From Puniceicoccaceae bacterium (GTDB lineage Bacteria; Verrucomicrobiota; Verrucomicrobiia; Opitutales; Oceanipulchritudinaceae): 64,000 nt of DNA. Position numbers: made by a program. This document shows, one piece after another, positions 24,001 to 27,000 of the stretch; the first letter of the stretch is position 1, and every line of letters begins with the position of its first letter. The DNA lies in the NCBI GenBank assembly GCA_040830765.1, contig JBFOMH010000007.1:38356-102355 (forward strand). The letters run 5' to 3'.

Positions 24001-27000
24001 TTCCCATCCCCGATCTGCTTCTCCGCCTTCGCGACAAGGCCAAGAAGGAAAAGGCCTCCAAGGCAATGAAGGGTACCCCGGCCCTAGGGCTCTGGGCCAC
24101 CCTTTGTTCGCAGCCGGCGATGTGGAAGACGGCCCTGACGATGGGACACACCATGAACTACATTCCCACGGAGATGATCCCCCACCCGTCGGCCCGGGCA
24201 TGGCAGCATGCCCGCAAGCTGCCCAAGTTCCAGGGCGGCGAGTTCCGCAAGTGGTTCAAGCACCGTGAACTGACCAGCAAGTAAGGATTTAATCATGAGC
24301 AACGACAGGGAAACCATTTTCTCCTCCATCCAAAAAGCGCTTGAGCCCCTGCCGGAACGGACCGCGTATCCCGATTGGGATGATGACATGGTCATTCCCA
24401 GGTCCCTCCCGGAGACCAACACCGCCAAGGAGCTCTTTGCCCAAATACTGGTCGCCGCCAGCGGAAAGTATTTCGACGCTGTCACCGAGCTGATCGAGTT
24501 CATGATCCAGGAAGGCCATACCTTCGGGTACTGCGACCCAAGCCTCGCTCACCACCTTGAGAAACAGGAAGGTATCAGCTTCGATACCGAATACGACATG
24601 GCCAAGGTCGACGATTACCAGTTTGGCATCACCCGCGCCAGCGCCGCCATTGCCGAGACCGGCACCCTTATGCTCAGCGACAGCGACACTTCCGCCCGCC
24701 TCGGTGCCCTTGCCCCGTGGCTGCACATCGCTGTTGTCCTGGAAGAGGATATCGTCCCCACCGTCCTCGATGCCATTCACCGCTTCGGCGATGATCCCAA
24801 CATCATCTTTGCCACCGGTCCCTCCAAGACCGCTGACGTAGAGGGCATCCTTATTGAAGGCGTCCACGGTCCGGGAATCCAGGTGGCCTTGGTCATCTAA
24901 CTGGTGCACCTACAATCGCCACTCCAGGCTTGAATCCTGCAGAAAGCGTTGTTCCTTTCCCGTTTGATCCAAACCAAGAACATTCATAATGAGCAATCAA
25001 GGTCTCACTGATTATAACATCCTGGCAAGGGAGGACGGTTCCACATCCTATGTGGTTGTTGGCATGCAACGGGTTTTCCAGCACATCATGAAGTCGGAGG
25101 AGTTCGAGCAACGGTTCGAATCACTTGACCATGTGGTCAATGCCATCATGGAAACTGTCGATGATACCCGGAACCCAAGAGTGCACAGCACCTTACTGGC
25201 CTACACCAGGAATGAAGATAGCTCGGCAAAAACAGAAAGTCGGCATCTTGAAAAGAAAGTGTCCCGCAAGGAGGTTTTCGAGCATTTGCCAGAAGTCCTT
25301 AGAAGTTATATCCACGAGAGACTGCCCGGTTCCAATGTGACCACGATTTTGGAAAACGGTAACCTGGTCGGATACCGGACAATCAATCAGGAACTACCTT
25401 ACCTTGTTTCGGTTCTGCAGATTGCCGTCTCGGCAAGGAAACGGGGCAAGACATTTGATGCTGTCCTCCATCGGACCATGAGGGATGCCGAGCCCCCCAT
25501 TTCCTATTGACCCCGCTTAGGTTCCCCGCGTTGAAACGCGGGCCTCACCTCTCCCGTCCCGTCGGGACGGGAATATCCATAAACCCGGGTTTTAACCCGG
25601 GGCCACCAATGCCGGTTACATCCCGTCCCATCGGGACGGGTTGATGTATAAACCCGGGTTTTAACCCGGGACTGCCAACAATCCAAAATGACTAACACGT
25701 TGGCTTGAACAGTCCATGTAAGAAAAAGGGAATATTGATAAGTTGTTACCATCGAATGATCCGCAGAACTTAGTCATGAGCCCGATTGCCACTGCCCTTT
25801 GCTTCCTGTCCTCCGCCGTAATTGTCCTGTCCTTCTTTTTTGCCGTGCGCTGCCTCTTTGTCCATGAAAGGCGCCTGGAGGCCTGGCGTTCAACGGTCAA
25901 GCACGTCATCTATGTCACGCGGAAGACTTTCAAGCGTATCGTTCTCGCACTTGGATGCCTCTCCCTGATGGTCTTTCTCGTGGCAACCTACTTCCAAATA
26001 GCCCCGCGTTAAAACAATTCCCGTCCCGATGGGACGGGTTTATTCAATAGGCCCGGGTTTTAACACGGGGTCACCAATACCGATTACATCCCCGCGTTGA
26101 AACGCGGGGCTCATCTCATCCCGTCCCGTCGGGACGGGAATATCCATAAACCAGGGTTTCAACCCGGGCCTATTTACCTGGGCCGCTAATCCCAAAGATA
26201 TCGCTCGTTGTATTCAACACCCGCCTTGTCCAAGAGATATGTATACTCACCCTTGAATGATTGGCGCCTGTGATGTTCCTCCTGATTCTGGATATACCGC
26301 TTGACCGAATTCAATGCTGAGGTGCTGACACTAAATGCGGCATATTCCTTCTGCCAGGCAAACCGCAATTCCAACAGGTGCGACTCGTTCAACCACCGCG
26401 ATGATCCTCCCTTGATGAGCTGCATAGCCCTGCTCAAAGGCATCGTTGCGGGAATCGAGAGGAGAATATGGACATGATCCTCAACACCACCAACTTCAAT
26501 TGCTTCCATGCCAACAGCTCTTGCGATCCCTCCCATGTAAGGCCACAAGTGTGAGCGGATCATTGGAGTCAGTAGCGGTTCACGGCGCTTTGTGCTGAAG
26601 ACACAATGGAAATGCGCACTGATGTAGGACATTCCGGTATTCCCACAATACCGGTCTACCGGGACAATCCATTGGATTACCTGAAATTAACCAGCCCCGG
26701 ACGCAAACGCTACCATCCCGGATTCGAACGCAACCATCCCCGCGTTGAAACGCGGGGCTAATCTCCCCCGTCCCATCGGGACGGGATTATACATAAACCC
26801 GGGTCATCAATGCCGATCCAACCACCCCCGCGTTGAAACGCGGGGCTAATCTCCCCCCGTCCCATCGGGACGGGATTATACATAAACCCGGGTTTCAACC
26901 CGGGTCATCGATGCCGATCAAACCTTCCCCGCGTTAAAACGCGGGGCTAACACATCCCGTCCCATCGGGACGGGTTGACGCAGAAACCCGGGTTTCAACC

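Follow-up and report, generated by a model that had tools for sequence, protein, structure and literature searches.

Acido-Lenti-1 hairpins as the probable cognate repeat of single-copy, IS200-like Y1 transposases

The Acido-Lenti-1 motif (RF01687) is probably a DNA-level module of two hairpins and the cognate repeat of a distinct group of Y1/HUH enzymes that are IS200-like and present in single copy (TnpAY1 subclass 1.2). The locus under study belongs to a Puniceicoccaceae bacterium (genome G000) and lies within a stretch of 64,000 nucleotides, termed the window, to which all positions given without a contig name refer. In the proposed basic unit the gene would be placed between two inverted modules, each separated from the ORF by about 60 nt and with the first hairpin (H1) pointing towards the gene. 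The gene-less forms would represent inverted doublets, REPIN- or MITE-like, which spread to other intergenic sites. This spread would most likely proceed by binding of the enzyme to the hairpins on single-stranded DNA, followed by cutting and rejoining beside them, with IS608 TnpA and TnpA-REP of E. coli as models. Binding and cutting of the repeats by the enzyme, as well as their mobilisation, are inferred, and so is the strand that serves as its substrate; neither enzyme activity nor excision products nor new insertions were observed.

The Rfam scan (E ≤ 1) of positions 23500-29000 yielded five RF01687 matches, all of them on the plus strand around a Y1 gene, and none elsewhere in this region. 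In their order along the strand they reach 28.4, 34.5, 41.8, 31.8 and 41.9 bits. Two of the five (41.8 and 41.9 bits) pass the gathering score of 37, and the other three range from 28.4 to 34.5 bits. An earlier note on this DNA had reported these five matches with 28-42 bits, which was borne out. The module comprises H1 with an 8-bp, G+C-rich stem, a near-invariant CT directly behind it, a linker of 10-12 nt and a second hairpin, H2, with a stem of 5-8 bp and a 3-nt loop. The description as a two-hairpin unit is correct for the part covered by RF01687, but the units in the window really consist of three hairpins, H1a, H2 and H1b. H1b is a second hairpin of the Acido-Lenti-1 type on the other strand, which has the middle hairpin H2 in common with the H1a module. 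It was detected with a more sensitive model, R1, whose training set comprised 40 sequences (28 of the gene loci L001-L056, five of the window and seven of gene-less doublets in relatives). Six minus-strand matches of R1 overlap these units. The earlier statement that all copies lie on the same strand is thus valid for the Rfam matches but not for those of R1. Moreover, five same-strand copies do not constitute the classical REPtron layout, as had been proposed, because the classical arrangement is inverted. Since the third hairpin is a minus-strand copy of the module, the sensitive model reveals this usual layout, which is visible here only via that hairpin.

The 1.5 kb that separate two convergent genes are entirely occupied by the transposase gene and seven units around it, each a compact inverted pair H1a-H2-H1b. 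Read on the plus strand, Unit 1 (25524..25602) contains H1a with a mismatched last pair, H2 and H1b and is covered by RF01687 at 25524-25569 (+) and by R1 at 25555-25602 (-). Unit 2 (25622..25671, +) is partial and consists of H2 and H1b without H1a (R1 25624-25671, -). Unit 3 (26002..26070, +) carries a truncated H1a, an H2 with reversed loop and a degenerate H1b (R1 26022-26070, -). Unit 4 (26090..26169, +) is matched by RF01687 at 26090-26136 (+) and by R1 at 26122-26168 (-), the latter being the left copy closest to the gene, which has the usual orientation and lies 18 nt off the stop codon of the transposase gene. On the other side, the RF01687 match 26738-26783 (+) of Unit 5 (26738..26804, +; H1b truncated) is the gene-proximal right copy, likewise in the usual orientation and 105 nt off the start codon. 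It is followed by Unit 6 (26826..26905, +; RF01687 26826-26872, +; R1 26858-26905, -) and Unit 7 (26927..27005, +; RF01687 26927-26972, +; R1 26958-27005, -), which ends 33 nt short of the stop codon of rhaA (27039-28556, -), a convergent gene. Between the repeat units lies a putative gene, a hydrophobic ORF of 89 codons (25743..26012, +) that was assigned to no Pfam family. Its stop codon falls within a truncated H1a.

R1 matches at just two places within the 64-kb window. The second place is a diverged cluster of three tandem units (8487..8777, +; period about 106 nt), H1a being the same as in the main locus and H2 and H1b being variants. This cluster is intergenic, with genes at 6339-8444 and 8814-10733 on either side, and was not detected by Rfam at E ≤ 1. 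Within the entire genome, eight RF01687 matches (E ≤ 1) were obtained: the five at the locus, the two dispersed copies that had been listed before (C3:167130-167174 and C32:17432-17477), and a third that was missing from that list (C3:167047-92). R1 raised the number to 27 matches in six places, so that G000 harbors five small, diverged clusters outside the locus. No R1 match was found on the contigs of its three other, weak Y1 genes.

The transposase gene (26186..26632, -) encodes a protein of 148 aa and is the sole gene of its type in G000. The Pfam value of the earlier note (Y1_Tnp, 1.6e-27) was reproduced for this ORF. The HUH motif is formed by H53 and H55, the catalytic residue is Y113, and the motifs read DHVH, WQ and YIQNQEEHH. 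Across 33 relatives H53, H55, Y113 and Q117 are invariant, as are F126 and E129 within a conserved C-terminus; the pattern Y..Q..HH is present in 52 of 56 Opitutales homologues. The protein had been addressed as a RAYT. This classification was rejected, since the protein failed the NCBIfam model REP_Tyr_transpos (NF047646; 23.4 bits, cut-off 80), passed the IS200 transposase model (NF033573; 70.9 bits, cut-off 55) and has IS608 TnpA as its closest solved structure (2a6m, E 2.8e-11). The E. coli TnpA-REP was not matched among the solved structures at E ≤ 1, and the RAYT-specific motif Y...NP is absent, its place being taken by YIQNQEEHH. In Table 1 of Quentin (2018, PMC6006769), TnpAY1 subclass 1.2 is characterized by DH[IV]H, WQ, YIKNQKEHH and a length of 148 aa. 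These sequence traits of the subclass, including Y...Q..HH and a conserved C-terminal tail, are present in our protein when it is compared with the published table, and by these motifs the protein fits subclass 1.2.

Among 151 Opitutales genomes, in which 37 candidates per genome were scored at E ≤ 0.01, the motif occurred in 45 and exceeded the gathering cut-off in 20, 17 of which contained the gene. Motif and gene were found together in 31 genomes, the motif alone in 14, the gene alone in seven and neither of them in 99. Thus, the gene is absent from 14 of the 45 motif-positive genomes, and the seven genomes with the gene alone lack any Rfam match. A profile search of five motif-only genomes detected a full gene in none of G083, G051, G110 and G127, the last of which is a single contig with 97% completeness; the fifth, G096, gave three partial gene matches of 21-32.5 bits. 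The public description of Acido-Lenti-1 reportedly names IS605 or group II introns among its neighbours.

The position of the motif relative to the gene was compared over a large number of loci. Rfam's own model (E ≤ 0.1) placed RF01687 within 1.4 kb of 18 of the 56 Opitutales Y1 genes and recovered it at 17 of 20 loci from diverse phyla, ten times over the gathering score. For a broader survey, 80 loci from about 17 named phyla were gathered with the 8-row alignment A2; owing to this query they are skewed to one clade of the family, other than the window's own. With R1 (E ≤ 1e-4), a correctly oriented copy within 250 nt was present on both sides of the gene at 31 of these loci, on one side at 27 and on neither side at 22, which amounts to 58 of 80 loci. 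The nearest copy was on the minus strand in 42 of 51 cases to the left and on the plus strand in 43 of 50 cases to the right, at a median distance from the ORF of 64 and 57 nt, respectively. At the 56 Opitutales loci (R1, E ≤ 1e-3) copies were found on both sides in 18, on one side in 21 and on none in 17 cases, with 29 of 34 nearest left copies on the minus and 27 of 29 nearest right copies on the plus strand, regardless of the gene's strand; this tally is partly circular, as the training set of R1 was drawn in part from loci L001-L056. A few loci (L096, L140, L024) showed the reverse orientation. The doubt that in eight of ten genomes no match had been adjacent to a Y1 gene is largely explained by the sensitivity of the Rfam model and by incomplete match lists.

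These data also bear on the reading that the hairpins belong to the host and have another role, the Y1 gene being an element that targets them for insertion. Insertion sequences that enter REPs are known, e.g., ISPpu9 (described as such in PMC8450116), and the motif without gene in four genomes would agree with such a role. However, the left arm is an inverted copy of the right one, their distance to the ORF stays constant at 57-64 nt, and H1 is always directed towards the gene; insertion into an existing repeat would not produce this symmetry. Furthermore, the hairpin sequences are common to both arms of a locus and different from locus to locus, they are particular to each gene lineage, and the gene-less doublets keep the inner hairpins that border the gene. 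We therefore regard host hairpins as highly improbable.

Both helices of the module are supported by covariation: 13 of 13 pairs vary on both sides, and 95% of the cells are paired, versus 80% in shuffles and 25-61% in slid alignments. Together with the restriction of R1 matches to two places in the window, this covariation excludes chance. Directly after H1, CT was present in 140 of 142 distinct rows, the triplet being CTG in 75, CTA in 39, CTT in 17 and CTC in nine rows, so that the other strand reads N-A-G. A 'TAG' foot was considered and dropped, because by the count over rows CT alone is conserved. The GT[AG]G foot known from canonical REPs is lacking in the hairpin. Known TnpA-REP enzymes cleave at a CT adjoining the REP, according to the account of cleavage in PMC8266576. 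The conserved CT is presumably either where the enzyme cleaves or, in its AG form on the opposite strand, a component of a guide.

Covariation fits hairpins in RNA equally well as in DNA, and a small non-coding RNA gene or an RNA element of a 3' UTR, with the transposase as an incidental neighbor, was therefore considered. The table passage of Weinberg et al. (2010, PMC2864571) rates the motif 'y' for RNA, and REPs of other bacteria are often transcribed, as stated in PMC3733652. At our locus, pieces of contigs from four sequencing runs, one of DNA and three of RNA or possibly RNA, cover 25712-25997, 26182-26382, 26570-26801, 26968-27157 and 25541-25669, those over 26570-26801 and 25541-25669 being RNA-library contigs. 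All of these are assembled contigs and do not show transcription; those from RNA libraries break at the repeats. No promoter-like site was found at the locus (1.6 expected by chance), and the three terminator-like sites are at chance level (2.3 expected); the counts speak neither for an sRNA gene driven by a promoter nor for a function as terminator. In addition, copies on both strands, inverted pairs with one hairpin in common, a copy number of 1 to at least 37 among relatives, and, across about 17 named phyla, a place and orientation bound to a protein gene speak against an RNA gene. The repeats may be transcribed, but a function that resides in RNA with an incidental transposase has very little probability.

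Copy number of the motif among the relatives is highly uneven, as had been noted before: at least 37 matches were counted in G008 (1.3 Mb) and in G129 and at least 33 in G102, all three values being lower bounds because 37 candidates per genome were scored. The inverted pairs that had been described at a distance of about 145 nt were confirmed as well. Such -/+ pairs, with a distance of about 140-145 nt, are common (G008:C43, C51, C118 and C151; G110; G102:C38 and C725), and G129 alone contains eleven of them. The doublets of G008 and G129 correspond to the gene unit minus the gene. These two relatives, in each of which at least 37 matches were counted and most of them form -/+ pairs, display what distinguishes REPINs, namely inverted repeats, a short spacer and many copies. 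G000 itself has compact units only, in six places, versus the REPIN-like populations of the relatives. One G129 doublet is absent from the orthologous intergenic space in two congeners; at this site (L159) the intergenic DNA does not align. At the orthologous site of a second G129 doublet (L157), the extra DNA of G129 amounts to about 1.5 kb and includes repeats of several kinds. Target duplications were found at none of five G129 doublets. A search with a 6.5-kb query detected no empty site of the window locus among five relatives, in which the flanking genes are rearranged or located on different contigs.

The gene unit and its doublets have their termini in common, as is classical for an IS and the MITEs derived from it. 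The whole system could accordingly be an ordinary selfish IS, i.e., an unrecognised group of the IS200 family with structured inverted-repeat ends, whose doublets are MITEs and whose unit is mobile and horizontally acquired; it would then not be domesticated and be REP-like in appearance only. NCBIfam names the protein an IS200/IS605 transposase. In a FastTree of 127 proteins the phyla are interleaved (32 label changes, minimum 14), and MAGs assigned to four phyla hold near-identical proteins (L083, L089, L084 and L011). On the other hand, an identical or near-identical protein is common to three species of one genus, which fits vertical descent; with 60 of 123 inner branches unsupported, the tree cannot decide between vertical and horizontal descent. 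Copy number within genomes argues against a selfish IS. The 33 within-genome paralogue pairs from 15 genomes, some of them closed or nearly closed, share at most 59% identity, and near-identical paralogues occur in none of the 15, with the caveat that draft assemblies can collapse identical copies. This agrees with the values tabulated for subclass 1.2 (1.7 copies, 36% intragenomic identity) as opposed to 99.4% identity for true IS200 (PMC6006769). Moreover, the gene is nearly absent from plasmids, full-length relatives being present in two of 72,556 plasmid records, both on replicons of about 600 kb. Draft MAGs may collapse copies and short contigs may be mis-binned, which limits the arguments of both sides; we consider such an element unlikely, albeit the most plausible of the three alternatives.

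The idea of a REP unit instead of an sRNA gene, which the earlier note had put forward, is hence partly supported. A repeated palindrome is tied to a Y1 gene, as judged from co-occurrence, adjacency with fixed distance and orientation over about 17 named phyla, gene-less doublets and the lack of near-identical paralogues. It has no GT[AG]G foot, and the protein is not a RAYT proper. The REP-like reading appears to be right in substance, its mobilisation part being conjectural. The system resembles the REPtrons or REPIN-RAYT systems of E. coli (TnpA-REP), Pseudomonas and Stenotrophomonas (class 2 of Quentin, 2018; Bertels and Rainey, 2011) in the single-copy Y1/HUH gene surrounded by inverted palindromic repeats, in the dispersal of the repeat in intergenic DNA, often as inverted doublets, in a repeat sequence of its own for each gene lineage and in the conserved CT beside the hairpin. 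It differs in the protein, which is of the IS200 branch with Y..Q..HH instead of Y...NP and fails NF047646, in the repeat, a two-hairpin module without GT[AG]G foot, and in the location of the gene inside what is otherwise a doublet.

Further relationships exist to other groups of Y1 enzymes. With subclass 1.2 the protein shares motifs, the length of 148 aa, the C-terminal tail, and low copy number and intragenomic identity. As tabulated in PMC6006769, this subclass has the entry 'REP: no' and occurs mostly in Cyanobacteria and Bacteroidetes, whereas we found a conserved flanking repeat at most loci and about 17 named phyla. The IS200 'Group 3' of Bertels, Gallie and Rainey (2017, PMC5581495), compared by description only, is also IS200-like; its members are free of duplicates, do not occur on plasmids and have abundant 16-mers in their flanks, and the authors call them RAYT-like. 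A repeat family is neither named nor linked to Rfam there. TIRtrons (Di Nocera et al., 2013, PMC3733652) are described as Y1 genes (TIRYT) between longer inverted repeats, some doubly palindromic, with moderately abundant dispersed dimers. According to the classification in Quentin (2018, PMC6006769), 20 of 26 TIRYTs belong to subclass 2.1, with an HTH tail and GGGGWSAS in the repeat, both of which are absent here. IS200/IS605 elements (IS608, ISDra2) have the catalytic core in common with our protein and provide the nearest solved structures. They recognize hairpins on single-stranded DNA and leave no target duplication, as at the five G129 doublets. In contrast to our system, true IS200 elements occur in many near-identical copies, often with tnpB, and their subterminal hairpins, which differ between the left and right ends, lie on one strand at both ends instead of forming inverted copies of one module. 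The family RF01687, as presented in Weinberg et al. (2010, PMC2864571), has the same two-hairpin consensus and is filed by Rfam as an sRNA gene.

A more far-reaching version is proposed tentatively, and we give it somewhat less than even credence. The Y1 enzymes of subclass 1.2, so far orphans, could have in Acido-Lenti-1 their missing partner at the DNA level and form with it a third REP-RAYT-like system, distinct from class 2 RAYTs in protein sequence and distributed over at least 15 phyla. In this system the invariant CT next to H1 would be cleaved, and the C-terminal tail, which is specific to the subclass, would read the second hairpin. With the gene within the loop of a REPIN-like doublet, this system would preserve an intermediate stage between an IS200-type IS and a REPIN population served by one enzyme. 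No paper was found that describes Acido-Lenti-1 as the repeat of a Y1 transposase, and a preprint suggests a regulatory role for the family. If our interpretation is true, RF01687 should no longer be annotated as an sRNA gene or regulator. A widespread group of enzymes described as lacking REP or IS ends would be supplied with a substrate, so that defined oligonucleotides would suffice for a direct test of its biochemistry. The interpretation would also add a further case, apart from class 2 RAYTs by protein sequence, for the origin of REPs and REPINs from IS200-like elements.

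A scan of window positions 23500-29000 with the Rfam models detected five matches to the Acido-Lenti-1 motif (RF01687), all on the plus strand, at 25524, 26090, 26738, 26826 and 26927, with scores of 28.4-41.9 bits, where the gathering score is 37. They flank an ORF of 148 aa on the minus strand (26186-26632), which matches Pfam Y1_Tnp at 1.6e-27. The coordinates and numbers that an earlier note had put forward for the Acido-Lenti-1 copies and for this IS200-like Y1 transposase gene were thereby borne out. Genome-wide, eight RF01687 matches were obtained at E<=1: the five of the locus, two on contig C3 and one on C32.

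Sequence inspection and a pattern scan revealed that the repeated unit exceeds the 46-nt Rfam model in length. It is composed of a first hairpin, H1a (CCCCGCGTTGAAACGCGGGG), a linker of 9-10 nt with CT at its start, a second hairpin, H2 (CCCGTCCCATCGGGACGGG), a linker of 11 nt and a third hairpin (ACCCGGGTTTCAACCCGGGT). A covariance model, R1, was trained on 40 RF01687 matches. Because R1 matches the minus strand of the locus at six sites (25555, 25624, 26022, 26122, 26858, and 26958), the third hairpin is a second H1-type hairpin on the opposite strand with H2 in common, and every unit is thus an inverted pair in compact form. Most of the 1,528-nt space between two stop codons, that of an unassigned 173-codon ORF on the left (24989-25510, plus strand) and that of rhaA on the right (27039-28556, minus strand), is occupied by seven units, of which two are truncated; the remainder comprises the Y1 gene together with an ORF of 89 codons. 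According to R1, the Y1 gene is bracketed by a minus-strand copy ending 18 nt from its stop codon and a plus-strand copy beginning 105 nt from its start codon, which is the arrangement usual in relatives. Parts of the locus are covered by assembled RNA-library contigs, and a promoter scan found no promoter-like sites there. A search for an empty site of this locus in relatives found none.

The 89-codon ORF (25743-26012, plus strand) is enclosed by repeat units and would encode a hydrophobic product that matches no Pfam family; its stop codon falls within a truncated hairpin. Contigs of two RNA libraries were found in its region, with a higher coverage figure than for the Y1 gene. The longest ORF of rhaA has 505 aa, yet its RhaA domain begins only at residue 91, and translation probably starts at a site within this ORF.

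With R1, 27 matches at E<=0.01 were identified in the genome, distributed over six places: the repeat locus around the Y1 gene, a second cluster, in which three three-hairpin units stand in tandem (window 8487-8777, 29-37 bits), and contigs C28, C22, C3, and C32. The second cluster, which has no Rfam match at E<=1, directly follows a multihaem cytochrome gene (6339-8444). Repeats at C22:26434-26738 and C3:167130-167174 belong to a different hairpin family, with the stem CCGTGGG...CCCACGG, a linker opening with CTAAC and the same architecture. No cognate Y1 gene was found for this family in the genome, and it may represent an orphaned repeat population. Three other, weak Y1 genes have no R1 match anywhere on their contigs.

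Among 151 Opitutales genomes, RF01687 was detected at E<=0.01 in 45 and a homolog of the Y1 protein at E<=1e-5 in 38. Motif and gene occurred together in 31 genomes, the motif alone in 14, the gene alone in seven and neither in 99, a table on which any test would be inflated by kinship. After a profile search the gene was still absent from four motif-positive genomes. For 56 gene matches, 1.4 kb on either side was compared. The residues Y..Q..HH are present in 52 of the 56 homologs, and paralogs within a genome share at most 59% identity (33 pairs). The Rfam model found RF01687 at E<=0.1 in 18 of the 56 loci; a model-free comparison showed inverted repeats of about 85-100 nt flanking most of the genes, also where Rfam was silent. 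Folding gave an identical module architecture, in which the arms match each other and the sequences are lineage-specific. At E<=1e-3, R1 placed copies in the correct orientation on both sides of 18 genes, on one side of 21 and on none of 17, a tally that is partly circular since these loci supplied part of its training set. Regardless of gene strand, the closest left copy was on the minus strand in 29 of 34 cases and the closest right copy on the plus strand in 27 of 29.

In locus L037 (G102:C38, 1069-2296), a doublet on the left of the Y1 gene is repeated with identical scores on its right, at a distance of exactly 1037 nt, so that the gene is either framed by two copies of the doublet or contained in a tandem duplication. 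The public description of the motif reportedly names IS605 and group II introns as neighbors; this is echoed in locus L014 (G116:C126, 299-415), where a domain of group II introns (RF02003) is matched about 1 kb from the Y1 gene at 39 bits, below the cut-off of 49.

Doublets without a gene were found in two relatives. The four in G008 equal both flanks of its Y1 gene fused at the gene position, with identical termini and hairpin order, and those in G129 likewise equal Y1 gene flanks without the gene. In five G129 doublets the ends coincide exactly with the feet of the outer H2 hairpins, and no target duplication is seen. One G129 doublet lies within a 525-nt intergenic space and is absent from the orthologous 182- and 290-nt spaces of two congeners. 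A separate short repeat of about 40 nt (L157, G129:C22, 1251-1347), matched more than 25 times in the congener G067, is unrelated to the adjacent doublet.

A scan with one genome per species extended the comparison to the best 80 of 588 relatives, which span about 17 named phyla (Verrucomicrobiota, Planctomycetota, Acidobacteriota, Bacteroidota, and Armatimonadota among them). At E<=1e-4, a script counted R1 copies on both sides in 31 of these loci, on one side in 27 and on none in 22; the closest left copy was on the minus strand in 42 of 51 and the closest right copy on the plus strand in 43 of 50, at median distances of 64 nt (left) and 57 nt (right). A hand tally at the looser E<=1e-3 gave 43, 21, and 16, respectively. 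In 20 of the 80 loci, picked for taxonomic spread, Rfam's own model found RF01687 in 17, above the gathering score in ten. In the protein tree, which is weakly supported, the phyla are interleaved, while within one genus the species have near-identical proteins. The Y1 proteins of loci L083, L089, L084, and L011, binned as Methylomirabilota, Chloroflexota, Planctomycetota, and Opitutales, are joined by very short branches of 0.013-0.18, which means recent transfer or mis-binning; several of these loci are on contigs below 5 kb.

The Y1 protein exceeds the NCBIfam cut-off for IS200 (70.9 vs. 55 bits) and lies far below that for RAYT (23.4 vs. 80). Its closest solved structures are TnpA of IS608 and of ISDra2; TnpA-REP of E. 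coli gave no match among solved structures at E<=1. The motifs DHVH, WQ, and YIQNQEEHH and the length of 148 aa agree with TnpAY1 subclass 1.2 as tabulated by Quentin et al. (2018, PMC6006769; Table 1), who list this subclass with 1.7 copies per genome, an intragenomic identity of 36% and "REP: no". The "IS200 Group 3", termed RAYT-like by Bertels et al. (2017, PMC5581495), lacks duplicates and plasmid copies and has abundant flanking 16-mers; the two may be the same group. In the accessible portions of the literature naming the motif, including the supplementary tables and seed alignment of Weinberg 2010, Acido-Lenti-1 is not described as a REP or as the partner of a transposase, and no link to it was found in literature on TnpAY1, "subclass 1.2" or RAYTs in these phyla. 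The GTAG REPs of Opitutus terrae and the TIR-flanked Y1 genes of Acidobacteria, in the relevant sections of Di Nocera 2013 (PMC3733652), are related precedents, yet differ from the pairing of Acido-Lenti-1 with a Y1 gene.

Among 142 distinct cross-phylum copies, changes on both sides were observed at all 13 pairs. Paired cells amounted to 95%, compared with 80% after shuffling and 25-61% with the partner column slid, in an alignment which was fitted to the model and is thus biased toward the structure; a MAFFT alignment (A3) gave 91.9% vs. 70.7%. CT directly follows H1 in 140 of the 142 rows. Known TnpA-REP enzymes cleave at a CT adjacent to their REP, with a guide, GTAG, that has AG at its end (PMC8266576); by analogy, the CT after H1 may play a similar part.
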